From positions 86,214-150,213 of the forward strand of contig JAKLFP010000006.1 in the NCBI GenBank assembly GCA_022711115.1: DNA of 64,000 bases. The letters run 5' to 3'. The position numbers and the translations under genes were made by a program. Origin of the DNA: Candidatus Omnitrophota bacterium. Lineage in GTDB: Bacteria > Omnitrophota > Omnitrophia > Omnitrophales > Aquincolibacteriaceae. The notes below the pieces were generated by a model. The model was not told where the DNA came from and made no database searches. It saw only the letters and a program-made list of their open reading frames with translations. Shown here piece after piece: positions 1 through 17,318 of this stretch. Within the stretch, counting starts at the first letter, position 1. Every line of letters begins with the position of its first letter.

Positions 1-3000
1 TAAAGTGTTTGCGCCCAGTTGTTTTTCCAAACGGTTCATCAAAATATCCATGGGATCCAGAAGAGCGCTTTGATTTTTAACTTTTCCGGCCGTCTCTTTT
101 TCTATTTGGGCTTTCCTTCCCGCCAAGTTAATCGCTTCTTCCAGTCTCTGCAGACCCAGAACAAATTCATCCATACCCGGGAAAATAGGTTGGGCTTTAG
201 CTGCCTCCAGTTTGCTTTTTGATTTTTTCAGATCGTCTTTTGCTAAAGCGCCTTCGACACCTGCCAAGAAACTTTTTAAAATCTCATTCCGCCGCGTCCA
301 TTCCTGTATGTCCTGCCCGTTTCGGACAAATTTTCCGAGTGCTTCAAGTTCTGTTTCTGAAAGAAGCGAAACCATGGCTTCATAAATTCTTCCGGCTTCA
401 TAAAGTTTTTTCTTTTTGGAATCGACATCCTGCAAGGCGCCCCGCTCCTCCATAAGGGCAACCAGCATCTCAAGTTTTTCAAGTACTAGAAGCTCCTTCG
501 CGCTCTGTTCTTTTGATGTCGCGAGAAAAACCTCGGCGATTCGTTCAACGGACGCAAGATATTCCTGAGAAGTGACCCATGGCAAAATCGTTTGCCGAAA
601 ATTTGCGGCAGAAGTTGCCTTTTTTGTTTTCAACATTTGGATCGTTGCGGCAAGCCGCCCCGCCGCGCCGCCATGTCCGCTCAACGCATCCTCCCACGAA
701 GCTTTGAAAAGAGCGCTACGGCCTTCTTTTTCTTCAGAGAAACCTATTTGGATCCACTCATCCGCATTGGGCCATTGGCCGCTTGGATCGAAATATTCTT
801 TGAGAAAATCAAAAAATTTTGTCCGCACAGCGGAAAGCCGGGTTTCCTTCACGGTCCTTTGATCATCCAGGCCCATGCGCTTGAAAAAAGCCACATTAAG
901 CGCGATCAGAAAACGGTTCTTTTCTCCGGCGTCCGGAATGGCATCGAGATAACTCTGCATCTTCTCTGTCGCGGGAACCATATCGTCAAGAACCTTTTTT
1001 AGCGGTGGAAAAAGAGACGTCCCGCTGGAAAAACGGCCGAAATCTTTCTGAGTGATCAGTGCTTGTCTTGGGTTCTCCTGCATAGCAAGGAATAGACCGA
1101 GTACCGGCATATAGATTTCACGCATTTGTTCTGGAATCTCAAAAAGCCTTTGCCTTTCCGGGGGAACCTTGCCGAACTCCTTTTGAAGCCGTTCCAAAAG
1201 ACTTCGCTTGGGACGCGCCGCTTCTGACAAAGATTGGACGGTACGCGCGACCTGTTTATGAGCTTGTATCAAGGGGTAGAGCACTGAACGCAGTTCCGGA
1301 AAATCTTCGCGCAAGGCTTCATAGGCCTGCGCCGAATCTTGCGGGGTGCCCGTTTCAAGGGCTTTACGAAAATCAATCAGCCGTTGGAATTGAGCAAGCC
1401 GCACGTTTAGATCTTCCACGACACTTCTTAATTCACTGCGCGGCGTTTTAGTTTGCACCCATTGAAAAATAGCCTCCACGCTTTGGACAAAAGCATCTTG
1501 TGAACTTAAATCGAAAGACGGCGGGCTGTTCATTCTTTTTATTTCGCTAAGCTCGATAAGCCGGCGAACCTGTCCTTGATAAATCTCAAAAGCCTGGGTT
1601 AATTCCTTTAAAATTTTATTGGCATAATCAGCCGCCGCCAGATTTTTAATCTTTTGTTCGAGACCGGCCAGATTTTTTTGTTTTTCAAATTCACGAACCG
1701 CGCCATGCCAAGTCTTATAAAAAACGGGCGTTTCTCCGGCGTCCGGGGCATACTTCATCATGAAATCGTCCAACCGGTCTCTCAGCACTTCGCCATCGGA
1801 TGTTTTAAAGGCATCATTGGAATCCATTCCAAGAGAGGTCAAGAAGGCCAGATTGAGGGCAACATACAATTCCCTTGCGGTTTCCGGCTTCGCTTGAAAA
1901 CGCTTTAAGATTTCAGAAGATGCCTTCTCGATCCATGGGTTGATAATGCGGAATTTGGAGCGGAATGCATGCATGTCTTGTGGCTGCAACAGGAAAACAA
2001 CTTTTCCGCTTGTTTTATCGAGATAAGTCGCAAGGAGAAGTCCGAGAACAGGAAAAAAGTGATCGGCTATTGAAATGTATTCCGTGAAGAATCCCATCCG
2101 GCCTTCAAGACCGGAATAACTTTTTGCGGGATCCAATCCGAACTCCCGCATCAGATTTTCTTTGGAAGCTAGGGGTTTAAGCGCGCGGCGGATCTGTGTT
2201 TCGGCTTGATGAAATGCTTGCAGGATCTGTTGGGTAGAACCTGCGGGGATCGTTTCCGGAGAGTGGAGTTTAAAAACACGCCGCTCATACTGTAATTCTA
2301 CTTTCATATGGTCATAGGTGGCCTGTTTCTCTTCTTCGGTCCGGGTGATTTGATGTGAATAAGCAACAATGGCCGGGGAGTTTCGCCCATGCTGGCGCGA
2401 CTCCGGAAAAAGACGCCCGTGCAGGGCGACTTCGGTAAGGAGTTTTTTCAGAGTATCAAATTTTTCATCTGTGTTCATCCCTTCATGAAACGCATATTTT
2501 TGAACCTCCGTATCCGCATAGACCATATTGGGAATCTCCTGAATGTCAACGCTGGGAGAACGAAGCGGCGATTCCAAAAACGCTACGATGAGCTCCTTCA
2601 TGAAACTTGCTTTGCTTTCATGGCCATGGGCCTCTGCCGGGGGGTCGACGATAGGCTGGTTGAAAACCAGTTTTAAACGGGGCGGATAATGGATCAAAGG
2701 TGAGAACTCTTTGCCCAGAGGATCCGCCGGAACGGACGGAATAAACTGGATGTCTACCACGTTCTTCAAGGCACGTGCAATTTCATATTCGGAACGTAGC
2801 ACCGGTCGAAAACCAAGATTGAGCATGACCCACAGCAAGATGATATTGGCTGCTCTGGGACTGGGTGGTGTGAAGCGGGGTTTTTCTGACGATGGAAGCG
2901 ATTCCGGAAAAAGATTCAAGAGACGATAGGCGAGAAGTTCATTGTCCCGGAACGCGCTAACAGTCGTGATTTCATTCGGAGGCTTGGGTTTGTCGCCAAG

Positions 3001-6000
3001 AGACGGCACCTTCGGATCGATGTCCGTGTCCAAATTAGCCAGGATCCGCCGAACCTTGAAGGCATCCCGAAGAAGGACCCAGATGGGATGGTTTTGATCT
3101 GCTAAGAGCAAATTATATTTTTTTCTTGCCCCGACAAGAACATGCATTAACTGAACTAGATTTCCGGTCTTTCCTTTCGTAAGATACTCCTGATAGTACA
3201 ATTTTCTGGCCATTTCTTCTGTGGTAAAAAGATTTTTCCCCGCATTGAGCCGTTCCAGATCTTTGAGAACATATTGGAAAAAGATTCTATGTTGTTCTTG
3301 CAATTCAGGAACGTCATGAGGTGAAAGCGCCACACCCGGTCGCGAATCAATATCAAACAAGCTGATATCTTGAAGCAATTTCCGGTACTGCAAGCCTTCC
3401 TGAACCCGATTCAGTTGGTCCATGACATCGGGATTGATCCGAGAAACTTCTTGAGCTTCGACATGACCTTCGGCATCCATACTTAAATAGGAAATACCAT
3501 GGGGCTCCGAAGGAGCTTGGACGGCCATATGAATGCTTTTGTCGGCTCCAAAAACAAACCCGAAAATATGTTCAATGGTATTTTCTTTCGCATTCGACTG
3601 CGTTGTGATTTTAAGCACACCCGCGCCACTGACAGAAAACACATAAAAGTTTTGATCCGGGAAATCACTTCGAATCTCATTTATCCGCCTCTGGAGGGCT
3701 TTGGAATCCATCACGATTTTTCCGTTTGCCGCCGGAGCTTGCGACATTTTCGAAGAGCCTTCCCCGCTGCGCACTTCAGAACGTACAGGACCATCTGCTC
3801 GTGATTTTTCTACAGCCTTTGAAACAGCATAGATGACCGGCTCCCAGCTCACCTGACCCGCTTTATCTTCCAAGATGCTTGTTAGCTGGGTATGGACGTA
3901 ACTGCTTATCGCATTGTAATGAGGCCGGACTTCACCGCTGCGAACTCTTGCAACAAAAAACTCCACCCATTTTTGTCCGGAACCTTCGCCAAAAGCTTTA
4001 TCGATTTTTTCAAAAGAAGAACGCACCTCCGCTCGATGTATAGACCTATGTTTCGGTTGTAAGATTATCGCGGTCGCTCCCCCATCATAGAGTTGCTCAA
4101 TTTTTTTAGACGCATACCATTGGCCTTCAGGGTCGAGATGCTCAAGATATCGGCGATAGCGGTCTTGCAGCATTTGCCTGAAATAGGTATGCCTGCTGAT
4201 GGTGTTATCCCACAATGGAATATCCGCGTCCTTTTCGACAGAGCTTTTTTCCAACAGCAAATGGGATCTTAAACTATTAGCAATCACGGCCGCCTTGGGC
4301 AATTGGGTTAAAGAATGAAGCGACGCTGTGGTGATCCTGACTGCATTATCAAACGGGTCTCCTTCTTCACTCCCCCCCAGCGATAAAACTCCACTATTGA
4401 GAATAAGATCGAATTTTTTCCCATGAAAATATCCTTTCGTATCCATCAGGCGCGCATCACCGTTTCGGGCATCTATTCCATTTTCTCTTTTACCATTCCA
4501 TCCTCCGACCGTAAGGGTCGACATAGCGCCACCGGCTTTTTTCAGAATATCATTGAGGAAATTCTCAAACACTCCGTCCGAGCCAATCTCTAAAATGTTT
4601 TTGATGCCATAATGCCTGAGGAGAAAGAGCAGCCGGTCCTCGGGATCCGATGGAAGCTCACCGTCAAAATCGTGCTCAAGATGATAAAAAATCATTGCTA
4701 AAAGATGCACATAATTGAATCTGGGAAGCTCAAAGCCTTCTTCGCCTTTCTTAATCAGCAAAGCTCTTGCCAAATAGTAATATTTTTTGGTTTTTGAATC
4801 CGGGAATTCTACGTAATTGAGAGGAACGACAGTTTTCGAATCATAGCGTTGTTGCATGTCCGACTGCAGTTTCTGCCATAGAGTAGGTTCAACAATATTG
4901 GGATGCGAAATAATGGACTGGGATTCTTGCTTGTACATCTGTGCCACAACGGTTTTGGATTGATCGAAAATGGGAGTCAACTGACCTTCAAAAGGTAAAG
5001 TTGCATTTCTTATTTCGGAACGATCAAAGGTAAGGCCTTGATTTGCAACAGTGAGACCGTGCTCTTCCAGGACAAGGGGATCAAGTGAACGGAGTAAAGC
5101 GGCAAACGGATGGTCGGCATCACCGACCTCGCGAAGACCTGTATTCAAACCCTCCAAATATTGAGTCCCCATTGCTTCGCTGAGCTGTGACTGAATAGCG
5201 CCTAACCCCATGAGGAGTGTAGGTTGGCGAATCGTTGACCCTGCCAAGACCCGGTCTTTGATCTCATGCGCACGAAGCTTAAGACCGGGTCTTGATTGTT
5301 CGGTCATAAGCTTGAGATAGCACTTGCCGTCGATTTTTTTCGAAATCCTTGGCGTAACGCGTATAAAAGAAATCTGGTGATCCTTGAAATATTGCGAAAG
5401 CCCTTCCGAGTGAAAGCCCCCGGTTACGAGAACCGCGTTTGGTTGATTGAGTGATTTCATCCGCCGCAGCATTTTTTCGAACATAATTTTTTCGCGTGCT
5501 TCCGCCAGCTCATAGAATCGCAAAGCGTCCACTACCCTGTCTTGGACGGTTCCGTTCCCTGGCGGATTATGCTCAGCGTTCAAAAGACGGTTTTGATCGT
5601 TGCCCGCTGACCGTTTTTCTTTGATTGTTCGATATTCTTCCCTGCTTAGTTCCAGAGCAAAGAGCTTCTTCAACAACAAATAATCTTGGTAACGATGGAT
5701 CACTTCTTTTTCAAAAGTTGTCTTCCCGAGCTTCTCCAGAACTTTTTCATTAAGTTGTTCGATTTCCTTAAATAGATCCGTCGCTTGAAGTTCGCTGGAA
5801 AGAATCGCCACGCCTATCCGACGCGTAAGGTTGGGATAATCTTCGAAACGAAAACCTTTCGGGGCAACGATACTATAAAATTCTTCAAAAAAACTTCGGG
5901 ACTCAAGACTCGGGGCTGGGGACTTGACTAAAAACGTTTCAAAACCATCTGCCATGGTGCCCAGTTTATGATCTATGAGCCATTTTTTCAGTTTTTGTAT

Positions 6001-6942
6001 TTCAGATTCAACAAGGGACGAGTTCCGGGCAACAAGTTTCTGTAAATTTTGGATTTTAAAAAATCGAACTAGCATGGGCCATTCAATCTGATGGCGAGTA
6101 TCGTTAAAATCGTGCCCTAAATAATCACGGGCATATTTCTCAAGAAGCGTTAAATGCGAAAGGATATCCTTGCCGGCTTCTTCTTGAAAAATCCAGGCTT
6201 TAAAAAAATCTTTTAGCTCTTTATTCAGAACCTTCGAGCTCTGCACCATAATCTTTCGGCGCATCTCATTCAAAAAACGATCCGTTTCGTTCTTGTGGCC
6301 GTAAACATCTCGAAAGACTTCAAGGTTCTTGCGATAGAGCACTTCGTCTTCAACTCCATAGACCACAGACTGAAGACTGGCGACTGAAACTTTAAAGTCT
6401 TTGGCCTGACGTCTTTGGCCGGCAGTCTGTTTTGAAAGAAACCGCTCCACGCCGCCAACGAACCCGAGTTTCGTCAATGCATCGATATATTTTTGATTCA
6501 GTTTTTCATCTTTGAAAAAAGCAAGTCTTTCCGGTTTTAACTCTCCGAAGCCGCCTTCTAAAAGAATCGTGTCGAACCCGTAACGGTCCTTCAGATGATT
6601 GAGAATGCGTTCTGTCTTGATCTGTGCTTCCTCACTGCCGTGGGCATCTTCGATATGGACAACCAGACTGGAGACTGAAAATGGAAGACCGAAGCGAGAG
6701 GTATTGCCAATTTCGGGTTTATAAATCTCGTTGATGATACCGATTTCGGAAGGAATAGCGATTTGATCGACCAATGAGGAGATGCTAGTCTCTAGTCTCT
6801 GGTCTACAGTCTGTAGTCTTGGAATTGAAAGATCCGCAGGCGCAGCTTGGGTGATGGTGGTGGTGGTGAAAATAAATACAATGATTCCCGCCACCAAGCG
6901 AATAGGAAAAGAGAATCTGGCACTTTTCTCGACGAAGCGCAT
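1..6942 (-). CDS. Multi-module giant-family protein, paralog A (5' end complete, 3' end beyond the window, more than 2,314 aa)
   Basis: Absent from the ORF track because no stop codon lies inside the window. Manual reverse-strand translation starts at ATG 6942..6940, with an in-frame stop upstream at 6976-6978. It gives MRFVEKSARFSFPIRLVAGIIVFIFTTTTITQAAPADL... The frame has codon ends at multiples of 3, and no competing minus-strand ORF is listed in it. I spot-checked the frame at 6942-5200, 4495-4620, 3922-4035, 3769-3783, 1402-1443 and 870-920. The N-terminal ~640 aa align with the N-termini of 25993..61080 and 61396..63573 (VVHIEDAHGSEEAQ, ILLEGG, VLVTGGFHSEGL, SFIRVTP). In-frame junction motifs are RSEIR 5008-5022, RAEVR 4021-4035, RSEVR 3769-3783 and RSELR 1426-1440. 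Confidence 0.8.
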   Translation of the reverse strand, partial: MRFVEKSARFSFPIRLVAGIIVFIFTTTTITQAAPADLSIPRLQTVDQRLETSISSLVDQIAIPSEIGIINEIYKPEIGNTSRFGLPFSVSSLVVHIEDAHGSEEAQIKTERILNHLKDRYGFDTILLEGGFGELKPERLAFFKDEKLNQKYIDALTKLGFVGGVERFLSKQTAGQRRQAKDFKVSVASLQSVVYGVEDEVLYRKNLEVFRDVYGHKNETDRFLNEMRRKIMVQSSKVLNKELKDFFKAWIFQEEAGKDILSHLTLLEKYARDYLGHDFNDTRHQIEWPMLVRFFKIQNLQKLVARNSSLVESEIQKLKKWLIDHKLGTMADGFETFLVKSPAPSLESRSFFEEFYSIVAPKGFRFEDYPNLTRRIGVAILSSELQATDLFKEIEQLNEKVLEKLGKTTFEKEVIHRYQDYLLLKKLFALELSREEYRTIKEKRSAGNDQNRLLNAEHNPPGNGTVQDRVVDALRFYELAEAREKIMFEKMLRRMKSLNQPNAVLVTGGFHSEGLSQYFKDHQISFIRVTPRISKKIDGKCYLKLMTEQSRPGLKLRAHEIKDRVLAGSTIRQPTLLMGLGAIQSQLSEAMGTQYLEGLNTGLREVGDADHPFAALLRSLDPLVLEEHGLTVANQGLTFDRSEIRNATLPFEGQLTPIFDQSKTVVAQMYKQESQSIISHPNIVEPTLWQKLQSDMQQRYDSKTVVPLNYVEFPDSKTKKYYYLARALLIKKGEEGFELPRFNYVHLLAMIFYHLEHDFDGELPSDPEDRLLFLLRHYGIKNILEIGSDGVFENFLNDILKKAGGAMSTLTVGGWNGKRENGIDARNGDARLMDTKGYFHGKKFDLILNSGVLSLGGSEEGDPFDNAVRITTASLHSLTQLPKAAVIANSLRSHLLLEKSSVEKDADIPLWDNTISRHTYFRQMLQDRYRRYLEHLDPEGQWYASKKIEQLYDGGATAIILQPKHRSIHRAEVRSSFEKIDKAFGEGSGQKWVEFFVARVRSGEVRPHYNAISSYVHTQLTSILEDKAGQVSWEPVIYAVSKAVEKSRADGPVRSEVRSGEGSSKMSQAPAANGKIVMDSKALQRRINEIRSDFPDQNFYVFSVSGAGVLKITTQSNAKENTIEHIFGFVFGADKSIHMAVQAPSEPHGISYLSMDAEGHVEAQEVSRINPDVMDQLNRVQEGLQYRKLLQDISLFDIDSRPGVALSPHDVPELQEQHRIFFQYVLKDLERLNAGKNLFTTEEMARKLYYQEYLTKGKTGNLVQLMHVLVGARKKYNLLLADQNHPIWVLLRDAFKVRRILANLDTDIDPKVPSLGDKPKPPNEITTVSAFRDNELLAYRLLNLFPESLPSSEKPRFTPPSPRAANIILLWVMLNLGFRPVLRSEYEIARALKNVVDIQFIPSVPADPLGKEFSPLIHYPPRLKLVFNQPIVDPPAEAHGHESKASFMKELIVAFLESPLRSPSVDIQEIPNMVYADTEVQKYAFHEGMNTDEKFDTLKKLLTEVALHGRLFPESRQHGRNSPAIVAYSHQITRTEEEKQATYDHMKVELQYERRVFKLHSPETIPAGSTQQILQAFHQAETQIRRALKPLASKENLMREFGLDPAKSYSGLEGRMGFFTEYISIADHFFPVLGLLLATYLDKTSGKVVFLLQPQDMHAFRSKFRIINPWIEKASSEILKRFQAKPETARELYVALNLAFLTSLGMDSNDAFKTSDGEVLRDRLDDFMMKYAPDAGETPVFYKTWHGAVREFEKQKNLAGLEQKIKNLAAADYANKILKELTQAFEIYQGQVRRLIELSEIKRMNSPPSFDLSSQDAFVQSVEAIFQWVQTKTPRSELRSVVEDLNVRLAQFQRLIDFRKALETGTPQDSAQAYEALREDFPELRSVLYPLIQAHKQVARTVQSLSEAARPKRSLLERLQKEFGKVPPERQRLFEIPEQMREIYMPVLGLFLAMQENPRQALITQKDFGRFSSGTSLFPPLKKVLDDMVPATEKMQSYLDAIPDAGEKNRFLIALNVAFFKRMGLDDQRTVKETRLSAVRTKFFDFLKEYFDPSGQWPNADEWIQIGFSEEKEGRSALFKASWEDALSGHGGAAGRLAATIQMLKTKKATSAANFRQTILPWVTSQEYLASVERIAEVFLATSKEQSAKELLVLEKLEMLVALMEERGALQDVDSKKKKLYEAGRIYEAMVSLLSETELEALGKFVRNGQDIQEWTRRNEILKSFLAGVEGALAKDDLKKSKSKLEAAKAQPIFPGMDEFVLGLQRLEEAINLAGRKAQIEKETAGKVKNQSALLDPMDILMNRLEKQLGANTL
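5023..6942 (-). other. Paralog A N-terminal signal anchor plus conserved family domain (aa 1-640)
   Basis: Hydrophobic segment LVAGIIVFIFTTTTITQA near the N-terminus. Conserved blocks are shared with the other two paralogs. The domain ends exactly at the first RSEIR motif (5008-5022). Confidence 0.7.
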
Positions 6943-7163
6943 CTTCTTTTTTGTAACTCCAATGAGGCTTGGTATTTAGAGCATGTAAAAGTTAACACAT
7001 GTTTTTAAGTCTTACAATGGACTTATAAAATTTATTTATAAAATATAACAAGCTTTGGATAAAAAAAACTATCTTAAAATAGCATTATTATTCATAAAAT
7101 CAGCAACCTGCTACCTGGAGTTATTTATGAAATCCTTGTGATTTTTAACAATATTTTTGAGAC

Positions 7164-7191
7164 TTTACGATGATTTTTGTCATGCTATAAT
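7164..7191 (+). promoter_or_regulatory. Sigma70-like promoter candidate upstream of the peroxiredoxin remnant and sodB
   Basis: Extended -10 element TGcTATAAT (TG 7183-7184, TATAAT 7186-7191). A -35-like TTTACG/TTACGA sits at 7164-7170 with a 15-16 nt spacer, in an AT-rich intergenic region. Confidence 0.35.
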
Positions 7192-7226
7192 GCCTCTTCT
7201 TGAAATTGTAAAGGGGGACCTGAGCC

Positions 7227-7360
7227 ATGCTGCAGATCGGCGAAACCGTTCCTGATTTTGAAATACCATTCATTTAAATGGGAACGAAGTCTTTCCGGCA
7301 GGCTGGCAACCCGATAAAAGGATATTTAGACTTAACCAAGCTTTGGTTAAAAAAATATAA
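7227..7360 (+). pseudogene. Peroxiredoxin (AhpC/Prx-type) gene remnant with an internal deletion and frameshift
   Basis: ATG 7227 follows an AAGGGGGA RBS and encodes MLQIGETVPDFEIPFI*, a Prx-like N-terminus of the G-x-x-x-PDF type. A different frame from 7271 encodes HLNGNEVFPAGWQPDKRIFRLNQALVKKI*. That resembles the 2-Cys Prx C-terminus (HGEVCPAGWKPG) with Cys replaced by Phe. The ~150 aa catalytic core between the two pieces is missing. Confidence 0.45.
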
Positions 7361-7442
7361 AACCCAGCGATTAATTTCAGGCCATTGCGGTAGAAAACTT
7401 TTTACGGCTGTGTTTTTATCGCTTACAAAATGAGAGGTATTT

Positions 7443-8021
7443 ATGCCATTTTCACTTCCTGAACTCCCTTACGCCATGGACGCTCTCGCGCCTCACATCA
7501 GCAAGGAAACCCTCGAATACCATTATGGGAAGCACCATAATGCCTATGTCACGAATCTCAACAAACTTACGGAGGGAAAACCTGCGGCTGGAAAAACCCT
7601 TGAAGAATTGATCAAGACTGCCAAGGGACCTGTTTTCAATAATGCCGCCCAGGTTTGGAACCACACCTTTTATTGGAATTGTTTGAAAGCGAACGGCGGC
7701 GGCATTCCCACCGGGCCGGTAGCCGAAGCCATCAACGCTTCTTTCGGTAGTTTTGAAGAATTTAAAACTCTTTTTACAAATATGTCGGTCGGACTTTTTG
7801 GCTCAGGCTGGACATGGCTTGTCAAAGACAGCGACGGCTCTCTCGGCGTCGAAGCGCTCTCCAATGCCGGAAATCCGCTGACCAATGACCAGAAACCCCT
7901 TCTCACCTGCGATGTCTGGGAACATGCCTATTACATCGATTACCGGAATGAGCGCGCGAAATACGTGGAAACTTTCTGGAATTTGGTGAATTGGGATTTT
8001 GTGAATCAGCAACTCAGCTGA
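7443..8021 (+). CDS. sodB: Fe/Mn-family superoxide dismutase (Fe-type signature)
   Basis: 192 aa. Motifs: LPELPYAMDALAPHISKETLEYHYGKHH, AQVWNHTFYW and DVWEHAYYIDYRN (metal ligands). RBS GAGAGG at 7432-7437. Confidence 0.95.
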   Translation: MPFSLPELPYAMDALAPHISKETLEYHYGKHHNAYVTNLNKLTEGKPAAGKTLEELIKTAKGPVFNNAAQVWNHTFYWNCLKANGGGIPTGPVAEAINASFGSFEEFKTLFTNMSVGLFGSGWTWLVKDSDGSLGVEALSNAGNPLTNDQKPLLTCDVWEHAYYIDYRNERAKYVETFWNLVNWDFVNQQLS

Positions 8022-8049
8022 GTCTGCAGGCTGAAGACTAGAGACTTAA

Positions 8050-8086
8050 GACTAAAACTGTGAAAAGCTTCAGTTTGTAGTCTTTG
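8050..8086. terminator. Hairpin between convergent sodB and the TPR gene (possible bidirectional terminator)
   Basis: GACTAAAACTG (8050-8060) pairs with CAGTTTGTAGTC (8071-8082), with a one-nt bulge and a 10-nt loop. An outer GAAGAC/GTCTTC pair lies at 8033-8038 and 8087-8092. A short T-run follows on the plus strand. Confidence 0.35.
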
Positions 8087-8095
8087 GTCTTCCGG

Positions 8096-8590
8096 CTAAT
8101 TGAGCATGGATTCCATACGACTGATCGCTTTCGCCGCCAAAGTGTATTCCGTGTTTTGTTGAAGGGCATGACGATAAGCTTCAAGCGCCTTGCTCCAATC
8201 ACCCTGATGCTCCCAAACTCTTCCCAAGTTATACCACGCATAGAACCGACCGTCATAACGTTCCGCAGTGGTCGCCTTTTCAAGCCAGGGAAGCGCTTCC
8301 TGCCAACGGCCTGTTTCGATCAGATAGGCTCCGATATCGTTATAAGGATTCCCATATTGCGGATCAATCCGAATCGCTCTCTCGCATTCCCTGATGGCAT
8401 CCCCGTAACGGCCTTTGACACTGTAGGCCCATCCTAAAAAGGTATGTGCCTCAGCGGTCGGCTGAGAGGCTATGGATTGGAGATACAATGTGACGGCCTC
8501 GTCGACTTTTCCGGCCATTTGTTTTTCATAACCTTCCTGAAGATAGCGATTTGCGGTTTCTTGAGGGTTCGGGATATCGAAGTTTTCCAT
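8096..8590 (-). CDS. TPR-repeat protein
   Basis: The ORF track gives 8096..8662. I prefer the start MENFDIP at 8590, which lies 1 nt after the stop of the upstream gene. Repeated TPR-like A/Y/W..G patterns are present (AEAHTFLGWAYSVKGRYGDAIRECERAIRIDP, YNDIGAYLIETGRWQEALPWLEKA, WYNLGRVWEHQGDWSKALEAYRHAL). Confidence 0.8.
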   Translation of the reverse strand: MENFDIPNPQETANRYLQEGYEKQMAGKVDEAVTLYLQSIASQPTAEAHTFLGWAYSVKGRYGDAIRECERAIRIDPQYGNPYNDIGAYLIETGRWQEALPWLEKATTAERYDGRFYAWYNLGRVWEHQGDWSKALEAYRHALQQNTEYTLAAKAISRMESMLN

Positions 8591-8591
8591 A

Positions 8592-9200
8592 TTAAAATCG
8601 CATAAAAGGGTTGGTTTTCTTTTCGTGACCCATCGTTGACTCCTCAGCATCGCCATAGGCATGGCCTGGAAAAACCTTGAGAGTTTCTTTCAAACCGGCT
8701 AGTCGCTTCAAACTTTCCCGCATTTTCAGTTCACTGCCTCCCGGAAGGTCACAACGCCCGCAAGCCCCGACAAAAAGTGTGTCCCCGGTCACCAGCCTAT
8801 CCTCGACAAGAATACATTGAGATCCTTCCGTATGACCCGGCGTGTGTATCAATATCAACTCCACATTGCCGATCTTCAGCAGAAAGCCTTCATAAGTTTC
8901 CAGAAGACGCTCTTTGATATCCTTGAGATGCCTTGCCTCTTTTTCGTGGACATAGACAGGACCCGCTATTTTTTGAATAAGATCGTTGACGCCGTTGCAG
9001 TGATCAAAATGCGTATGCGTCAAGACTCCGGCCACAACCTTCATTCCATCTTTCTCGGCTTCGCTCAAAACCGCATCCACATCCCAGGCCGGATCAACCA
9101 CAACGCATTCTTTTTTGCTTTTGTCCCCGATCAAATAGCAAAAATTCTGCATATAGCCAACCGGTATTTGTTTAAAATAAAGATTGCCGCTGTTACTCAC
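8592..9200 (-). CDS. MBL-fold metallo-hydrolase (glyoxalase II-like)
   Basis: 202 aa with the HxHxDH motif (THTHFDHCNG), a later HTPGHT, and a downstream D/H ligand pattern. Confidence 0.85.
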   Translation of the reverse strand: MSNSGNLYFKQIPVGYMQNFCYLIGDKSKKECVVVDPAWDVDAVLSEAEKDGMKVVAGVLTHTHFDHCNGVNDLIQKIAGPVYVHEKEARHLKDIKERLLETYEGFLLKIGNVELILIHTPGHTEGSQCILVEDRLVTGDTLFVGACGRCDLPGGSELKMRESLKRLAGLKETLKVFPGHAYGDAEESTMGHEKKTNPFMRF

Positions 9201-9684
9201 CGCATGGACACCTTTTCGTCTGGATACGTTCGTAATAAATACTTTCTATCTTAGGCTGGTCGCATAAATTCAAACGGGATTGTTCCGAAAAAGAAAACGG
9301 AAGCGGTGGATAAAAAACATCGCCGTCATAATTCTGATGAATCCGCGTCATATAGACCCCATCAATGAGAGAAAGTGTTTGCATGAAAAGATCCGCTCCC
9401 CCAAGGATAAAAGCCTTTTGTGTTTTGATTTGCCCAAGGGCATCTCCGAGCGTATCGAAGAATTGCGGATTGTCACCTCCTGAGGGAAGAGATTTGCTCA
9501 GAACAAAATTCTGACAATCCGGCAACGGTTTGCCGAGACCTTCATAGGTTTTGCGACCCATGATCACCGTGCTCCCAATGGTCAACTTACTGCGGTGTTC
9601 CCTGTCTTCTGGAAAACACCAAGGTATTTTCTGGTTCTTTCCGATAATATGATTTTGAGCGACCGTCACGATATGAAATAGCAT
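9193..9684 (-). CDS. folA: Dihydrofolate reductase, copy 1
   Basis: 163 aa. IIGKNQKIPW, VIMGRKTYEGLGKPLP and ILGGADLF match the DHFR layout. It overlaps the downstream MBL gene by 8 nt. Confidence 0.85.
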   Translation of the reverse strand: MLFHIVTVAQNHIIGKNQKIPWCFPEDREHRSKLTIGSTVIMGRKTYEGLGKPLPDCQNFVLSKSLPSGGDNPQFFDTLGDALGQIKTQKAFILGGADLFMQTLSLIDGVYMTRIHQNYDGDVFYPPLPFSFSEQSRLNLCDQPKIESIYYERIQTKRCPCGE

Positions 9685-9726
9685 AAGACCTTCCCTGCAG
9701 CAGCTACCTTAAAGAATTAAAAAGAC

Positions 9727-10221
9727 TCACGCTTGTTTCTCATAAAAAACAACTTCAAGCAAGGGATCGTCCTGCAGTTTTTCCCGTGATTTTTCTTTAA
9801 AGGCAGCCGGGATTTCCGGATAAAAAACATCGCCCTGGTAATCGGCGTGAATACGGGTGAGATAAATGCCGTGGGCTCGATTAATGGAAGTCCTGTAAAG
9901 CTCCGCACCCCCAATGATAAAAGCGCGCTCGGTCTTCACATTTTTCAAAGCGTCCTCGAGCGTGGAGAAATAGGTTTGACCTGGATAGGGATTTTGACCG
10001 CTCCGATCCAAAATAAAGTTTTGACGTCCCGGCAACGCCTTGCAACCAAGGCTTTCAAATGTCTTGAGGCCCATAATCACCGTCTGGCCTGTGGTCATTT
10101 TTTTGAAATGCTGCAGATCTTTTGAAAAATGCCAGGGGAGTTGATTCCCCTTCCCAATCACTCGGTTATTCGCAACAGCCACAATATGGTAAAGCACAAA
10201 ACCTCCAAACTTTTTGACCAA
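9727..10221 (-). CDS. folA: Dihydrofolate reductase, copy 2 (tandem paralog)
   Basis: 164 aa. VIGKGNQLPWHF, VIMGLKTFESLG, LPGRQNFIL and IIGGAELY are present. By eye it is roughly 45% identical to copy 1. Confidence 0.85.
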   Translation of the reverse strand: MVKKFGGFVLYHIVAVANNRVIGKGNQLPWHFSKDLQHFKKMTTGQTVIMGLKTFESLGCKALPGRQNFILDRSGQNPYPGQTYFSTLEDALKNVKTERAFIIGGAELYRTSINRAHGIYLTRIHADYQGDVFYPEIPAAFKEKSREKLQDDPLLEVVFYEKQA

Positions 10222-10277
10222 AGCTTATGGCTCATAGCTTAGAGCTAGCCGCTAGGGGCTATAGTCTATGGTCTGAT

Positions 10278-11072
10278 TTAAACAGCAACAGGTGCCTTGA
10301 TCGCCGGATGAGGGTCATAACCTTCCAGCTTAAAATCTTCGTATTTAAAATCAAAAATATTTTTTACCGAGGGATTCAGAACCATCTTCGGCAGAGTTTT
10401 CGGCTCGCGGCTCAACTGCAGCTGAACCTGTTCCCGATGATTCAGATAAATGTGCACGTCTCCAAACGTATGCACAAATTCGCCCGACTTCAGACCCGTC
10501 ACCTGTGCCATCATCATAGTCAGAAGCGCGTAAGAAGCAATATTGAAAGGCACCCCCAGAAAAACATCCGCGCTCCGCTGAAAAAGCTGGCAGGAAAGCT
10601 TCCCGTTCAGAACATAAAACTGGAAAAACGCATGGCAGGGCGGCAAAGCCATTCGGTCGATCTCCCCGGCGTTCCATGCGCTGACGATGATTCTCCGGCT
10701 GTCCGGATTGATTTTGATCATGTTAACCGCGTCCGAGATCTGGTCCACCGTCGTTCCGTCATTTTTTTTCCAAGACCGCCACTGAGCGCCATAAACCGGC
10801 CCAAGATCTCCGTTCGCGTCGGCCCACTCGTCCCAGATGGTCACACCGTTGTCTTTCAAAAATTTGATGTTCGTATCCCCTTTTAAAAGCCAAAGCAATT
10901 CATAGAAAATCGATTTGGTGTGGATTTTTTTGGTGGTCACTAGCGGAAACCCTTCCGCCAGATCAAACCGCATCTGATAACCGAAGGTGCTGATCGTCCC
11001 AACGCCCGTGCGGTCTTTTTTTTCGGTGCCGTTTTTGAGGATATGCCGTAGAAGATCAAGATACGGCTTCAT
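10278..11072 (-). CDS. thyA: Thymidylate synthase (ThyA type)
   Basis: 264 aa. [39 protein letters not shown] (catalytic Cys) and the C-terminus PAIKAPVAV. The start overlaps the stop of the upstream gene (ATGA at 11069-11072). Confidence 0.95.
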
Positions 11073-12142
11073 GAAGCCTGTCCGGCAGCATTGAGCTCTT
11101 GCATCTTTGTCTTCTGCGAATCTGCGGGCGGCTGAGACTCTTTGAAAAAATGAGTGTCATCGATATTAAGATCTCCGAAGTAATAACCATTCACAAGAAA
11201 AATCGAGGATGCATCGGAGATCTTCGCATAATAACCCCCTGCTTTTTCGTCATTCACCCCTAGACTGATCGCGGTTTCTTTCCCCCCTGCCGTCACAGCG
11301 ATTTCTAACACCGGTTTCTCAAGGCCATACCCTTTTCCGTCCGGGTCCACGACATTCTTCGCTTTAATGCTGTTCAAAGTCGCGATAAAACGTATGACCT
11401 TATCCGGATCAATGGAGGAAGAAAGATCCTGCCTTAAAAATTTCCAGGAGTTTTTCGTGGGATCTGATTTATCGGTGACTAATTCTATTCCGGCAGCGCC
11501 CGTTTTCGCGCCGTTCTTTAACTGGAATACTGTTATTTTTTGAACGTTTTCGGGTTGAAACTTAAAAAGAGTCAAATCCGCCCAATAATCACTTGAGGGT
11601 TTCCCTTCTTCAAGGGGCGTATAGATCCCAAGGAGATCCGCCATGTTCACATCGGAGAAGTAAACCTCATCGCTGGCCGTTTGGCGCAAAAAACACCCCT
11701 GCATCCCGGCCTGTTTCGTGCCCACCTTCAGATCTAAAAGAACCTTTCCTCCGTCCCCTGAAATCACCATGGAAAAAGCATCTTCATTTTTTATTTTAAA
11801 ATCCTCAAAAAGCTTTTTTTCATTCCCGCGCAATTCGCCTTTGGCCGTACTAAGTTTTTCCAAAAGATGATTCACCTTCGTAACATCTGCCGGAACATCC
11901 CAAAGGCTTTTGACTCTCCAAAGATCCTTTTCTTTGACAAGTTCGACAGGCGGCATGGCCACACCGCGGCCGATCAGGATCTTTTTCGCTTTCGTCGAAT
12001 CGAAATGAAACAGCCTAGTCCCCTCCGCTGACTTCAAGGATGCAACAGTCGTGTCACCGGACCGAACCCAGTATTTCGCTAAGATACCGAGCGAAAGAAT
12101 TCCAAGGATCAAAACCAAAACGATTATTTGTTTTTTTTCCAT
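11069..12142 (-). CDS. Membrane-anchored DUF4340-like protein (third gene of a GldG-type ABC cluster)
   Basis: 357 aa with an N-terminal TM ([17 protein letters not shown]). Its position directly after an ABC ATPase and a permease-GldG fusion is the usual context for DUF4340. The family call rests on context and general resemblance only. Confidence 0.55.
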
Positions 12143-12193
12143 AGCAAGAGAGGCGCCAGAAGTTTGTTCCGCTGACGCTCGGTCTGAGGTCCG

Positions 12194-14701: not shown

Positions 14702-15450
14702 GCATTCACCGTTTTCCGGGGGGCCAATAGCTGGATAAAAATATCTTCGAGGCTCAGCTCTTTTGCAGACTGACCTTGCGCTAAAACTTTTTCCGCCAGT
14801 TCTCTTTTCGTCCCCTGCGCCACCAATTTCCCTTCGTTGATGATCACAATCCGGTCCGCAAGAACTTCGACTTCTTGTAAAATGTGTGTGGAAAAAATAA
14901 TGGTCTTTTCTTTGGCAAGGCTTTTGATCAGGGAACGAATCCCGATGATCTGAATCGGATCCAGCCCGGAGGTCGGCTCATCAAGGATCAGAACTTTAGG
15001 GTCATGGATCAGCGCCTGCGCAAGCCCGACGCGCTGTCCATAGCCTTTGGATAACTCGCAAAGCAAATGTTTCCACACGGATTTCAGCTGACAAGCCTCT
15101 CTCACCCATCCGAGACGTTCCTGGAGACTCTTCGAAGAAAGTTCACGCGCCTTGCCGACAAAATTCAGATATTCCTCTACTTGCATATCGGCATAAAGCG
15201 GCAAGGTTTCCGGCAGATAGCCGATGCGTTTGCGGACTTCAAGCGGATTTTCCAGAATGTCGATCCCGTCGACCTTCGCGGTGCCCGAGGAAGGATAAAG
15301 GTAGGTCGTCAGAATTCTCATCGCCGTGGTTTTACCGGCACCATTCGGCCCCAAAAGACCGAGAATCTCTCCGGGATTTGCCTGAAAAGAAACCCCGTCA
15401 AGTGCGACCACGGGGCCGTACCGCATGGCTAAGGATTGAACATCTATCAT
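14698..15450 (-). CDS. ABC transporter ATP-binding protein
   Basis: 250 aa. Walker A GPNGAGKTT, signature LSKGYGQR, Walker B LILDEPTSGLD. Confidence 0.9.
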   Translation of the reverse strand: MIDVQSLAMRYGPVVALDGVSFQANPGEILGLLGPNGAGKTTAMRILTTYLYPSSGTAKVDGIDILENPLEVRKRIGYLPETLPLYADMQVEEYLNFVGKARELSSKSLQERLGWVREACQLKSVWKHLLCELSKGYGQRVGLAQALIHDPKVLILDEPTSGLDPIQIIGIRSLIKSLAKEKTIIFSTHILQEVEVLADRIVIINEGKLVAQGTKRELAEKVLAQGQSAKELSLEDIFIQLLAPRKTVNA

Positions 15451-15491
15451 AAAAAATAAAATTCCTTAAAAAATATAGATCAAAGTTAAAT

Positions 15492-16199
15492 TTACCGGCG
15501 CCGTCCAAAAAGCCGGAGGAGAAACAGAAACATATTAATGAAATCGAGATAAAGCCTCAAGGCGCCCATGATCGCAAGCTGTTCCGGCGCATGGGACCCG
15601 CTCTGGTGGATCGCTTTCAGTTTTTGAGTGTCATAAGCCGTGAGACCGATAAAAACCGCGACCCCGACATAAGAGAGGATCCAGTCAAAGACCGGCGAGT
15701 GAAAGAAAATATTTACAACACTGGCAAGGATCACTCCCCAGAGAGCCATCCCGCAAAAACTGCCGACTGAAGTTAAATCTTGTTTGGTCACCCATCCGTA
15801 CAAGCTCACCCCTGCGAAGGTCATGGCCGTGATAAAAAAAGTCGCAGAGATCGACGCCATGGTGTAAATAAGGAAAATAGTCGCCATGGTAATGCCATTC
15901 AGCGCGGAATAAATAAGAAACCCGAGTACGGCCGTTTGTGCGGAAATCCTTTGGATGCTCGCGGAAAGCCATAGGACGATTCCGAATTCCGCGATAAAGA
16001 AAAGCCAAATACCGCCTTTTAAGAGAAACCGAAGTAAGGGAACATTGCCTGCCGTAAAAAAAGCGATAAGCCCTGTCAGTGCAAGCCCCATGGCCATCCA
16101 CTGATAGACGCGTTGCATAAAAGTCGAAAAAACGGCTCCGTGGGAATAGGAAAATTGGTTCTGTTCATTCTGCTCCATAAAAAAATCCTCCTTTGACAT
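15492..16199 (-). CDS. Bax inhibitor-1/YccA family membrane protein
   Basis: 235 aa with about 7 TM segments. It has a typical BI-1 N-terminal FMQRVYQWMAMGLALTG and a basic C-terminus. The true start may be the internal MEQNEQ. Confidence 0.8.
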   Translation of the reverse strand: MSKEDFFMEQNEQNQFSYSHGAVFSTFMQRVYQWMAMGLALTGLIAFFTAGNVPLLRFLLKGGIWLFFIAEFGIVLWLSASIQRISAQTAVLGFLIYSALNGITMATIFLIYTMASISATFFITAMTFAGVSLYGWVTKQDLTSVGSFCGMALWGVILASVVNIFFHSPVFDWILSYVGVAVFIGLTAYDTQKLKAIHQSGSHAPEQLAIMGALRLYLDFINMFLFLLRLFGRRR

Positions 16200-16291
16200 T
16201 ACTGATGTGCGTGTATTGTAGCTAAAAAAACACTCTTTCTCAAGACAGATGCGAGACCCACCCGCATGGAAGGAATAAAAGCTTTTTCAGA

Positions 16292-17280: not shown

Positions 17281-17318
17281 GCCTGGAATCTCCGTTTTCG
17301 ATGAATGGAAGCGGCTGC

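Follow-up and report, generated by a model that had tools for sequence, protein, structure and literature searches.

We identified, on the reverse strand of positions 1-6942 of the analysed stretch of DNA (the window, 64,000 nucleotides), the beginning of a second giant multi-module gene, whose membership in the family of the neighbouring 35-kb gene is supported by a shared head domain and by a recurrent five-residue motif, R-(S/A/P)-E-x-R, at the boundaries between its modules. We tentatively propose, at a little below an even chance, that its product is a polyprotein which is cleaved at these junctions, with the head domain of the same protein as the probable cutter. Whether the products of the giant Omnitrophota genes, which run from 10 to more than 100 kaa (thousand amino acids), act as one chain or as cut pieces is a recent puzzle according to published analyses; a strict five-residue motif could supply the cleavage points, and would give the first concrete candidate cutting sites for the suspected processing.

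Translation of the minus-strand frame from 6942 to 1 gives 2,314 codons with zero stops, as a sequence-only reading of the window had found by manual translation, and the ATG at 6942 is the first start codon past an in-frame stop 11 codons upstream. A partial protein at NCBI (PLO78_07890, P0001, "hypothetical protein"; assigned by NCBI to Candidatus Omnitrophota bacterium) is 100% identical and starts at the same ATG. The stop codon had been placed beyond the window edge, and it does lie there, ~23.9 kb further to the left: an identical 462-kb contig (L001, 100% identity) extends the frame leftward to a full ORF of ~10,277 aa, that is, the JGI call of 9,554 aa plus 723 in-frame residues upstream (the JGI call begins at internal residue 724; the NCBI and JGI callers differ on the start). 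The part in the window (1-6942, reverse strand, aa 1-2314) makes up the 5′ 22.5% of this ORF, the whole gene being ~4.4 times longer. The proposed leftward extension succeeded for the length of the frame; the sequence read directly (window and L001) comprises the first 3,166 aa of the ~10,277. The contig is metagenomic and its start calls disagree, so one could suspect an assembly artefact or a decaying pseudogene whose long frame is no real gene; this is effectively refuted, since chance cannot produce a stop-free frame of ~30.8 kb, at least four samples yielded independent assemblies of the sequence with 100% identity, and there are hundreds of homologous loci.

The neighbouring paralogue is an ORF of 11,695 aa (25993-61080, reverse strand; hereafter the giant ORF), with the same head domain, 32 strict junctions, an end in ...FAMARSA, and many distinct Pfam families that tile the polypeptide. 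The "family domain" that had been claimed for both genes is real: their N-terminal ~570 aa share 31% identity (E 1e-61). A scan of species-representative genomes with an eight-sequence fragment alignment (the full 30-sequence alignment is too diverse) found this domain at the head of at least 586 loci, nearly all of them in Omnitrophota. The family of these giant "beads-on-a-string" proteins is large and mostly from Omnitrophota. At the other end, the C-terminal 265 aa of the giant ORF had no family relative in a jackhmmer search. A universal "C-cap domain" was considered and dropped in favour of a tail rule, because only P0002 to P0004 have a detectable conserved domain at the C-terminus.

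The junction consensus is R-(S/A)-E-(V/L/M/I)-R, with the looser form R-(S/A/P)-E-x-R. A motif scan of the window gene recovered the four strict junctions listed by the sequence-only reading, all on the reverse strand: RSEIR (aa 641-645, 5008-5022), RAEVR (aa 970-974, 4021-4035), RSEVR (aa 1054-1058, 3769-3783), and RSELR (aa 1835-1839, 1426-1440), together with the looser variants RSGEVR (3925-3942) and RINEIR (3670-3687); the next junction past the window is RSEMR at aa 2542, in L001. Four strict motifs R[SA]E[IVLM]R compare with 0.03 expected (1,000 composition-preserving shuffles), and 32 in the giant ORF with 0.12 expected; an unbiased k-mer scan of the giant ORF also returned SEVR/RSEV as the top 4-mer (p~1e-28). 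The motif had been taken for a family trait and not a one-off, and the wider counts bear this out: strict motifs lie in-frame downstream of the head domain 136 times in 70 independent loci (2.1 expected), and the looser R[SAP]E.R occurs 304 times in 76 head-domain ORFs (12.4 expected), whereas 281 ordinary ORFs of the same loci and the window contain it at background (13 vs 9.3 expected). The motif is confined to head-domain ORFs or their same-strand continuations. No strict motif was found in 32 of the 70 loci, and some of these have no recurrent string at all. On the head-domain tree the junction type is clade-specific (R-x-E-x-R in two clades, GARLA in another), a pattern that would also be expected from shared ancestry together with a protease encoded elsewhere.

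The codons of the motif bear on whether it acts as peptide or as nucleic acid. Serine had been described as encoded by AGT in the window gene, which is true of one of its three motif serines only (that of RSELR, 1426-1440); for the giant ORF, the description of all motif serines as TCN is correct (31 of 31), and 29 of the 31 first arginines are CGN. This bias, and the shuffling of modules between giants with a junction at each end, would fit a nucleic-acid signal (for mRNA processing, for an internal restart of translation, or for module shuffling at a recombination hotspot) with the peptide as its by-product, a reading that we consider very improbable. Codons vary at every motif position (Arg1 is CGC, CGT, CGG, CGA, or AGG; Ser is TCC, TCT, TCG, TCA, or AGT; six codons serve for Arg5), position 4 may be V, L, M, or I but is always hydrophobic, and there is no Met enrichment after junctions. 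Because the codons differ synonymously between instances and Ala or Pro can take the place of Ser, even in whole lineages, selection is on the protein and not on the DNA; the TCN bias itself is explained by the interchange of Ser, Ala, and Pro via first-base changes. Junction chemistry that depends on Ser (phosphorylation, or self-cleavage by an N-to-O acyl shift) was discarded on account of the same replacements.

The motif falls between Pfam domains, in linkers predicted to be disordered, and at the points that correspond to the ends of stand-alone homologues. All 13 Pfam domains of the giant ORF, P0007, and P0031 lie wholly inside inter-junction modules (median length 286 aa), and the junction flanks are P/S/T-rich and aromatic-poor. 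In the AF2 model of aa 601-1005, pLDDT drops below 50 in just two internal segments, which contain RSEIR (model residues 28-54, before module 1) and RAEVR (model residues 366-375). Stand-alone homologues of module 1 (P0055 and P0066) stop 5-6 residues short of RAEVR, and relatives of this module within P0043 and P0048 have a junction on either side (RAEVR...RSEVR and RSESR...RSEAR, respectively). Junction placement is conserved between homologous modules of different giants; for example, the RSEVR at aa 1054 is kept as RSEVR at the aligned site of P0041 (aa 2108) despite divergent flanks. The first junction trails the TGGFH motif of the head domain (see below) by a median of 167 aa. In addition, there are double junctions 11-26 aa apart, and some modules open with a TM segment of their own a few residues past the junction, like an N-terminal signal anchor.

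These boundary features weigh on a different reading, in which the protein stays uncut and works as one multi-enzyme scaffold of giant size, with R-S-E-x-R serving the linkers as a structural or docking element, e.g., a short β-strand that binds the head domain, a chaperone, or a membrane surface. In a 2026 preprint, each such protein is regarded as one polypeptide (a "multi-enzyme metabolic cluster") that has many TM helices (bioRxiv 10.64898/2026.06.07.730766); R, E, and R at i, i+2, and i+4 would share one strand face, which suits a binding epitope; and cleavage is so far inferred. We nevertheless think an uncut scaffold unlikely: a five-residue motif with three strict positions, a position 2 that tolerates S, A, or P, and unconserved disordered linkers around it is typical of protease sites, module ends match the ends of stand-alone proteins, the modules that begin with a TM segment a few residues past the junction speak against it as well, and double junctions make poor sense as spacers.

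Module 1 (aa 646-969 between its junctions; folded core aa 660-965, 4048-4965, reverse strand) had been called methyltransferase-like from a Rossmann-like stretch at nt ~4390-4600, and this is supported by fold and by transitive homology: the stretch is real and lies in a domain with the Rossmann-like, seven-stranded fold of class-I SAM methyltransferases. Its AF2 core blocks have pLDDT values of mostly 85-98, and every one of its top 50 Foldseek matches in the PDB is a SAM methyltransferase, with E from 7e-6 to 1e-3 and a probability of ~1.0. Among ~24 relatives of the module, the stand-alone ones match Methyltransf_23/11/25 (for P0055, Methyltransf_23 at 37.7 bits vs a cut-off of 27). Module 1 itself has no Pfam methyltransferase match above threshold and no match to PDB sequences, and the glycine-rich loop of motif I (E/D-x-G-x-G-x-G) is absent from it: the SAM loop (nt 4579-4605) is degenerate, with IGSDG instead of IGCGxG, and its ILEIGSDG--VF, set against the ILDIGCGPGYF of the relatives, has two glycines replaced and a two-residue gap. 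As a methyltransferase the module may, to judge from this loop, be inactive or divergent.

The per-module profile searches that had been suggested gave a mixed outcome, in that module 1 could be assigned through its relatives, and modules 2 and 3 have no Pfam assignment. Module 2 (79 aa, aa 975-1053, 3784-4020, reverse strand) holds the looser RSGEVR and has no family match; module 3 (776 aa, aa 1059-1834, 1441-3768, reverse strand) has no Pfam or NCBIfam match and is homologous over ~865 aa to an internal region of P0041, a family member of 3,955 aa. Module 4 starts in the window (aa 1840-2314 and beyond, 1-1425, reverse strand) and runs on in L001 to the RSEMR at aa 2542. A comparison of modules 1-6 with 40 family proteins gave no match. 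The leftward extension holds a canonical methyltransferase-like module, identified by weak Pfam matches; with module 1, identified by its fold, this makes two methyltransferase-type modules in the first 3,166 aa, the rest of which is Pfam-dark. The internal repeat reported for the C-terminal part is real but has two copies, not three: copy 1, within module 3, aligns over aa 1571-1798 (1549-2232, reverse strand), and copy 2 over aa 1885-2138 (529-1290, reverse strand), the duplicated unit being ~320 aa. The self-comparison proposed as a check shows no repeat by BLASTP of the 2,314 aa, and the two copies are visible only by Smith-Waterman alignment with shuffles. RSELR lies between the two copies; its aligned counterparts are a decayed RTEEEK (aa 1535-1540) that precedes copy 1 and, in P0041, RSEVS.

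The N-terminus (aa 1-33, 6844-6942, reverse strand) resembles a signal peptide, with a basic n-region, a hydrophobic core, and ...TQA before AP; the N-terminal segment is the sole stretch with a Kyte-Doolittle value >1.8 in the first 3,166 aa, and, by eye, family members have a like N-terminal pattern with AxA-like ends. The conserved head domain follows (aa 53-550, 5293-6786, reverse strand). It is predicted to have a TIKI/erythromycin-esterase/ChaN/TraB-type α/β core, with a central parallel β-sheet and helices on its flanks, plus a helical insertion of ~300 residues. In an alignment of 30 family sequences (A1), His101 (6640-6642), a candidate catalytic His in an (I/L)-Q/E-D-A-H motif, is invariant (30 of 30), and so are Glu129 (6556-6558), a candidate catalytic Glu 28 residues past His101, Arg483 (5494-5496), a candidate substrate-binding basic residue 28 residues before His511, and the two glycines and the histidine of G508-G509-F-H511 (the TGGFH motif, 5410-5421; all reverse strand), His511 being the second candidate catalytic His. 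By motif and spacing, His101 has its counterparts in His3902 of RRSP and His85 of Bcr135 (PMC6254334). The His-to-Glu spacing of +28 is common to the head domain, RRSP (H3902-E3930), and Bcr135 (H85-E113), the spacing from Arg to the second His is 28 in the head domain and 29 in RRSP (R4001-H4030), and His511 matches RRSP His4030 in order and spacing (PMC6254334). In RRSP, H3902/E3930 and R4001/H4030 are essential to peptide-bond cleavage, and Glu3900, two residues before the first His, is only partially required (PMC6254334); the residue at this place is Asp99 here, and D, T, or N across the family.

We thus predict that the head domain has a TIKI/erythromycin-esterase/ChaN-like hydrolase fold with an intact catalytic constellation, which is the main new mechanistic lead of this analysis; the sequence-only reading had not recognised the family domain as such a fold. 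Family searches place the domain at a distance from curated models: PF04187 is matched by 6 of the 30 members, more than any other family (best E 1.3e-4, all below the gathering threshold), and the head domain of the window gene has no Pfam or NCBIfam match. A PDB profile search with the head-domain alignment returned chance troponin matches only, and a Foldseek comparison of the head domain with the PDB found nothing significant, with Bcr135 (E 0.17) as the best of the relevant matches. In the di-arginine clades, unlike in the GARL clade, acidic residues occupy the columns beside the catalytic ones, which is a weak signal.

Taken as a mechanism, the window gene would encode a polyprotein in which variable, shuffled modules follow a head domain of ~500 aa, itself preceded by a signal-peptide-like segment; the junction pentapeptide would be recognised by an endopeptidase, whose cleavage would free each module as a protein of its own; and the leading candidate for this endopeptidase would be the head domain of the protein itself, acting in cis or on paralogues. 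We infer all three of its parts, namely cleavage at the junctions, the head domain as the cutter, and the cellular site; literature and proteomic searches found no cleavage product or proteomic data that bear on them. Some observations speak against the protease role. The superfamily also includes esterases and a haem-binding protein, and therefore the fold alone implies no protease activity. About half of the head-domain ORFs (the 32 of 70 loci above) have no strict motif, although the catalytic residues are invariant in all aligned members. As to the site, a Sec-type signal would put the head domain outside the cytoplasm, and the modules resemble cytoplasmic enzymes.

The junctions could instead be cut by a protease encoded elsewhere, with the head domain serving as an esterase or lipase (of envelope or prey lipids), in ChaN-like binding of haem or a cofactor, or as a membrane anchor; in our judgement this is quite unlikely. 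The catalytic residues are invariant in all aligned members, also in those with no recognisable junction motif, and therefore head-domain function would be independent of the motif; C39 and S8 peptidase domains occur in other Omnitrophota giants (West-Roberts et al., bioRxiv 10.1101/2023.11.21.568195); and an M24 peptidase and a gamma-glutamyltranspeptidase are encoded between the two giants, although neither has a fitting specificity. These points are opposed by the confinement of the motif to head-domain ORFs or their same-strand continuations, by a junction type that tracks the head-domain clades, and by the finding of no conserved protease or exporter gene beside either giant.

A bolder version of the self-cut polyprotein, which we regard as conceivable rather than probable, is that Omnitrophota have true polyproteins: ORFs of 2 to >10 kaa, exported by Sec, would be cut by a TIKI-fold head at R-(S/A/P)-E-x-R into dozens of enzymes, with the cargo shuffled between paralogues as junction-flanked cassettes and possibly delivered to prey or host cells by predatory or parasitic nanobacteria. 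If true, this would be a strategy of enzyme expression or delivery analogous to viral polyproteins and MARTX toxins. A candidate enzyme with defined substrates allows a concrete and cheap test, and the motif, which recurs in hundreds of genomes, is a rule for in silico cutting of the giants into foldable, annotatable units. If confirmed, cleavage would establish a bacterial polyprotein system of unprecedented scale and add a new class of substrates to the TIKI superfamily; should it be refuted, a large uncurated protein family, with its grammar of modules, would still be defined by the motif.

Giants of Omnitrophota have been published with their Pfam content, repeats, and topology (bioRxiv 10.64898/2026.06.07.730766; 10.1101/2023.11.21.568195). 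Post-translational cleavage was suspected for them, the cleavage points were stated to be unknown and the proteins hence not split, and C39 and S8 peptidase domains were proposed as the processing enzymes (West-Roberts et al., bioRxiv 10.1101/2023.11.21.568195). The genes studied here resemble the published multi-enzyme giants in phylum, size (≥10 kaa), occurrence of several per genome, and putative N-terminal signal peptide, and, for the giant ORF, in the tiling of one polypeptide by unrelated enzyme domains (methyltransferases, NUDIX, PGM, PPDK, HEAT, and others). They differ in that C39 and S8 peptidase domains were not found in the 3,166 aa of the window gene, and in that the papers have no junction motif, TIKI-like head domain, or C-terminal tail rule; our literature search found no description of the R-S-E-x-R junction motif or of the head domain.

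The MARTX toxins of Vibrio are very large secreted proteins, in which conserved ends flank shuffled effector modules and a built-in protease frees the modules at linkers. Giant size, a conserved terminal region, variable and shuffled enzyme modules, and inter-module linkers are common to both systems, and RRSP, a MARTX effector, is itself a TIKI-fold endopeptidase (PMC6254334). In contrast, no Pfam match to glycine-rich RTX repeats was found in the window gene, its extension (3,166 aa), or the neighbour, and no Peptidase C80 domain (the inositol-hexakisphosphate-activated cysteine protease) in the 3,166 aa of the window gene or the complete neighbour; the candidate protease here is of another fold and N-terminal, the site is R-S-E-x-R as opposed to Leu-X, the modules resemble housekeeping enzymes and not known toxins, and the putative N-terminal signal is of Sec type, not for type I secretion.

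With the TIKI/TraB-PrgY/ChaN/erythromycin-esterase superfamily (RRSP, TIKI1/2, EreB/C, Bcr135/136, HopBA1), the head domain shares the α/β core, the order His, Glu (+28), Arg, His (+28), and would share an extracytoplasmic or membrane-associated site, which is common there. It differs in the ~300-residue helical insertion that splits its core and in matching no curated model at threshold; to our knowledge, no member of the superfamily heads a modular protein of several thousand residues. In the polyproteins of picornaviruses and potyviruses, and in the gingipain/adhesin polyproteins RgpA, Kgp, and HagA of Porphyromonas gingivalis, a single ORF encodes both an embedded protease and a short site that recurs at each boundary; the gingipains also begin with a signal, are cut at Arg/Lys, and have a conserved sorting domain at the C-terminus. 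The giants described here differ from these self-processing systems in their ~10-12 kaa, their dozens of unrelated enzyme modules, and the fold of the candidate protease, and their cleavage is predicted from sequence. What they share with them is a short consensus that recurs wherever one independently folding unit borders on the next; their candidate for an embedded protease is the head domain, a hydrolase fold with an intact catalytic constellation and putative peptidase activity.

The minus-strand frame traced by the sequence-only reading from position 6942 to the left edge of the window is indeed open, translating as 2,314 codons without a stop. Its ATG at 6942 is the first possible start, with an in-frame stop 11 codons upstream, and NCBI called the same start for a 100% identical protein (P0001, [quoted passage not shown]). 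The gene had been thought to be missing from the ORF track because it runs off the window, and this proved to be the sole reason: L001, part of a 462-kb JGI contig reached via the neighboring superoxide dismutase gene (7443-8021), is 100% identical to window positions 1-18021 and extends 2,558 nt further left, and the frame stays open in this extension, giving 3,166 readable amino acids in total. The gene called on the JGI contig has 9,554 residues, counted from the internal Leu724 of this gene (L001 7331, window 4773), so the head domain (aa 53-550) was omitted from that call; the ORF from ATG 6942 is therefore ~10,277 aa long. It occupies about 68,312-99,145 of JGI contig 3300010429|Ga0116241_10000037, on the opposite strand from the record. 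With the paralogous ORF of 11,695 aa (25993-61080, reverse strand), the number of giant genes in the window rises from one to two, both in the same orientation. The observation is real and goes beyond what had been stated from the sequence; we find it barely conceivable that an assembly artefact or a pseudogene lies behind it. A ~100-aa tandem repeat, helical and charged, spans the window's left edge (window 1-30; L001 about 1990-2590; aa about 2305-2500), its aligned parts being about aa 2305-2400 and 2400-2500 (Smith-Waterman score 135). Elsewhere in the window, tandem dihydrofolate reductase genes (9193-9684 and 9727-10221, reverse strand) adjoin a thymidylate synthase gene (10278-11072, reverse strand), and a 725-aa ORF (61396-63573, forward strand) that has no Pfam match diverges from the start of the 11,695-aa giant.

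All of the junction motifs claimed for this gene are present: four strict ones, RSEIR (5008-5022; aa 641-645), RAEVR (4021-4035; aa 970-974), RSEVR (3769-3783; aa 1054-1058), and RSELR (1426-1440; aa 1835-1839), and two looser ones, RSGEVR (3925-3942) and RINEIR (3670-3687; aa 1086-1091). Two further junctions lie in the L001 extension (RSEMR, aa 2542; RSEVR, aa 2976). Strict R[SA]E[IVLM]R is expected 0.03 times in this gene and 0.12 times in the 11,695-aa neighbor, and is observed 4 and 32 times, respectively. The looser R[SAP]E.R occurs 304 times in 76 head-domain ORFs (12.4 expected), as compared with 13 times in 281 ordinary ORFs of up to 1,200 aa (9.3 expected). A k-mer scan without any prior found SEVR/RSEV to be the most over-represented 4-mer of the neighbor (p about 1e-28), and RAEV, RSEM, SEVR, or AELR to be the top 4-mers in several relatives. 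The logo built from 109 instances reads R, S (77%) or A, E, V/L/M/I, R, with small residues favored directly before and after; Pro, Ser, and Thr are enriched in the flanks, and Tyr, Cys, and Ile are depleted. The family often shows junctions in pairs, spaced 11-26 aa. The looser RINEIR is kept as RLNEIR at the aligned position of the family protein P0041, 27 residues past the conserved RSEVR; it is a conserved feature of module 3, and possibly a second, degenerate site.

The serine of the motif had been said to be encoded by AGT in this gene and by TCN throughout the giant gene. The second half stands, and the first holds for one codon, but the three window serines are TCC, TCT, and AGT. All 31 RSE[IVLM]R serines of the giant ORF (25993-61080, reverse strand) are TCN, against a background of 31% AGY (p about 1e-5), and the first arginine is CGN in 29 of the 31 sites. 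This bias probably reflects codon-family trapping via Ser/Ala/Pro interchange, or common descent of the junctions. It also leaves some room for nucleotide constraint, as would apply if the junction were a signal at the nucleic-acid level, but codons vary at every position across instances and we consider such a signal very improbable. Since the codons vary in this way and Ser is interchanged with Ala or Pro, selection acts on the peptide. Ser-based self-cleavage or phosphorylation at the junction is excluded, since Ala or Pro can stand in place of the Ser.

Scanning a single genome for each species turned up at least 586 loci that encode the head domain, often several per genome. We took the best 80 of these, unused in defining the motif, as a test set, and 70 of the 80 had enough in-frame downstream sequence. 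In these 70 independent loci (138,835 aa) the strict motif, with Phe also permitted at position 4, was observed 136 times against 2.1 expected, which bears out the suggestion that the junction is a family trait and not peculiar to the 35-kb gene. Among 5.8 billion proteins searched, 39 relatives came up in addition to the entry for the gene itself. Almost all of them are from Omnitrophota and 1.5-4 kaa long; they have only the N-terminal ~550 aa in common and carry very different enzyme domains downstream. Motif enrichment in the closer relatives is 20- to 100-fold. Neither the 9,554-aa JGI product nor the 11,695-aa neighbor was returned, so the longest family members are under-represented in this search, and the lengths of the relatives come in part from truncation at contig ends. 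The few long motif-bearing ORFs without a recognized head domain are all on the strand of a family gene; most lie directly downstream of it and are probably continuations of the same gene, and one is itself a family gene missed by the head-domain pattern.

The junction also varies by lineage, for example RPESR in locus L009 and RAEKR in L066. A separate clade (the proteins P0021, P0018, P0028, and P0025, and locus L041) has no R-x-E-x-R and repeats G-A-R-L-A/S instead, starting shortly past the head domain (over-representation of GARLA: p about 1e-10 in P0021 and about 3e-9 in L041); this string may be an alternative type of junction. In a neighbor-joining tree of the head domains, R-x-E-x-R is present throughout two clades, in all 13 members of one and all 6 of the other, and GARLA belongs to a third. 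Junction-like strings also occur between the signal peptide and the head domain in P0003 (RSSEIR, aa ~43-48) and P0010 (SSEVRT, aa ~34-39), where they could be a pro-peptide site; no equivalent string was found in this gene. At the other end, almost all complete family members close with an amphipathic helix and, after it, a small residue plus Ala (SAA, KSA, RSA, QAA, or ASAA), as seen in the giant ORF (...FAMARSA, 25996-26016) and in the C-termini of P0002-P0049 that we compared; the ~250 aa ahead of this tail are conserved only within subgroups. The tail looks like an element recognized in secretion, in sorting, or by a tail-specific protease.

In the neighbor, P0007, and P0031, the Pfam domains each lie wholly within one inter-junction module and have about the size of a free-standing family protein: glutamate dehydrogenase, malic enzyme, HEAT, UDP-glucose pyrophosphorylase with epimerase, inositol monophosphatase, methyltransferase, acyl carrier protein, MraZ, PLP enzyme, histidine phosphatase, and acyltransferase. 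The median module is 286 aa long. At aa 3040-3368 of the giant ORF (50977-51963), the junctions at positions 3040, 3148, 3256, and 3364 delimit three consecutive units of exactly 108 aa. Their lengths match, but homology is not evident (identity among them only about 24%), and the first alone is a HEAT-repeat unit.

Module 1 of this gene (aa 646-969) has no Pfam, NCBIfam, or PDB sequence match. About 24 relatives were found by exhaustive HMMER search, the stand-alone ones match class-I SAM-methyltransferase families, and the top 50 structural matches of the module's model are all SAM methyltransferases. The module had been called methyltransferase-like, which holds for the fold, but enzyme activity is doubtful because it has a degenerate glycine-rich SAM loop (IGSDG and a gap of two residues, versus IGCGxG in relatives). 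Module 2 (79 aa) received no family assignment, and module 5 (aa 2547-2975, in the L001 extension) gave weak matches to several methyltransferase families. In the AlphaFold model of aa 601-1005 (15 relatives, pLDDT 78), only two internal segments fall below pLDDT 50 (model residues 28-54 and 366-375), exactly those that contain RSEIR (41-45) and RAEVR (370-374), and the core between them folds confidently (pLDDT mostly 85-98). It could be that the junctions are never cut and act as linker or docking motifs, which we rate as somewhat unlikely. We found no proteomic evidence on the processing of these proteins. The free-standing module-1 relatives P0055 and P0066 stop 5-6 residues short of RAEVR, and copies in other giants have junctions on both sides (RAEVR 2948 and RSEVR 3270 in P0043; RSESR 1498 and RSEAR 1832 in P0048). 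Module 3 shares 37% identity over about 865 aa with an internal region of P0041, where RSEVR (aa 1054) is conserved in place and RSELR (aa 1835) appears as RSEVS. Modules with their junctions thus behave as cassettes, at different ranks in different giants; no relatives of this gene's modules were found in the neighboring giant.

The head domain quite probably belongs to the TIKI/erythromycin-esterase/ChaN/TraB superfamily, which also includes esterases and a haem-binding protein. In its confident AlphaFold model (pLDDT 85, pTM 0.82), a helical insertion, ~300 residues long, interrupts a small alpha/beta core; Foldseek returned no significant match, and no curated family model reached threshold. 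H101, E129, R483, G508, G509, and H511 are invariant across an alignment of 30 family sequences. Peptide-bond cleavage by RRSP requires H3902, E3930, H4030, and R4001, and in part E3900, and Bcr135 has an H85/E113 pair (PMC6254334). The His-to-Glu spacing is 28 in all three proteins, and the Arg-to-His spacing is 28 here (R483-H511) and 29 in RRSP (R4001-H4030); the family residue matching E3900 is variable. The head domain is a candidate protease. Acidic residues occupy positions 105, 138, 145, and 484, beside the catalytic residues, in both di-arginine clades and not in the GARLA clade; this would be in keeping with a specificity pocket, with phylogeny as a confounder.

Together these features suggest a polyprotein with an embedded processing enzyme, because their combination is the signature of one: a strict pentapeptide inside predicted disordered linkers, placed at the natural ends of protein-sized units, and restricted to ORFs headed by a putative hydrolase-fold domain with an intact catalytic set. 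We also counted toward this reading the position of the first junction, a median of 167 residues past the last motif of the head domain, and the site variants specific to clades. That cleavage occurs, which enzyme performs it, and in which compartment are all inferred here. That the gene's own head domain would cleave the junctions is our tentative proposal, to which we give a little less than an even chance. Another protease might do so instead, which seems rather unlikely to us; genes that flank the two giants or separate them have ordinary housekeeping functions, and none is a dedicated exporter or protease gene. The remaining probability was assigned to explanations outside the five considered here.

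Where such processing would take place depends on topology. The family N-termini resemble cleavable Sec signals, and there is no other strongly hydrophobic segment in the 3,166 aa of this gene. A Sec-type signal would export the head domain, as in TIKI, ChaN, and PrgY; at face value, enzymes of cytoplasmic type, thousands of residues in all, would be exported too. Possibly the modules act outside the producer, which by analogy would suggest MARTX-like delivery by a predatory or parasitic cell; a cut at the first junction may uncouple an exported head from a cytoplasmic remainder; or the N-terminal segment may be an anchor in an unusual orientation. In the neighbor, some modules begin with their own TM helix a few residues past the junction, and this would have the look of a released membrane protein, or of a signal anchor belonging to a released module. 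In the giant ORF, a stretch of 19 strongly hydrophobic residues (aa 5487-5505; 44566-44622) starts 8 residues past RSELR (aa 5474-5478), and three more TM-like segments lie at aa 3402, 7372, and 8414.

Giant Omnitrophota genes, including the 'multi-enzyme metabolic cluster' class, are already in preprints (bioRxiv 10.64898/2026.06.07.730766; West-Roberts et al., bioRxiv 10.1101/2023.11.21.568195), neither of which mentions a motif, linker, or polyprotein, and our literature search on the RSEVR motif and on Omnitrophota polyproteins found nothing relevant. The gene adds a member to a known class of giants; its junction grammar and its TIKI-like head domain have, as far as this search reached, not been described before, and they make the question of processing directly testable. 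RTX repeats and the C80 domain, both features of MARTX toxins, were not found in the 3,166 readable aa of this gene, which therefore does not qualify as a MARTX toxin; the nearest functional analogues are MARTX toxins, viral polyproteins, and gingipain polyproteins.
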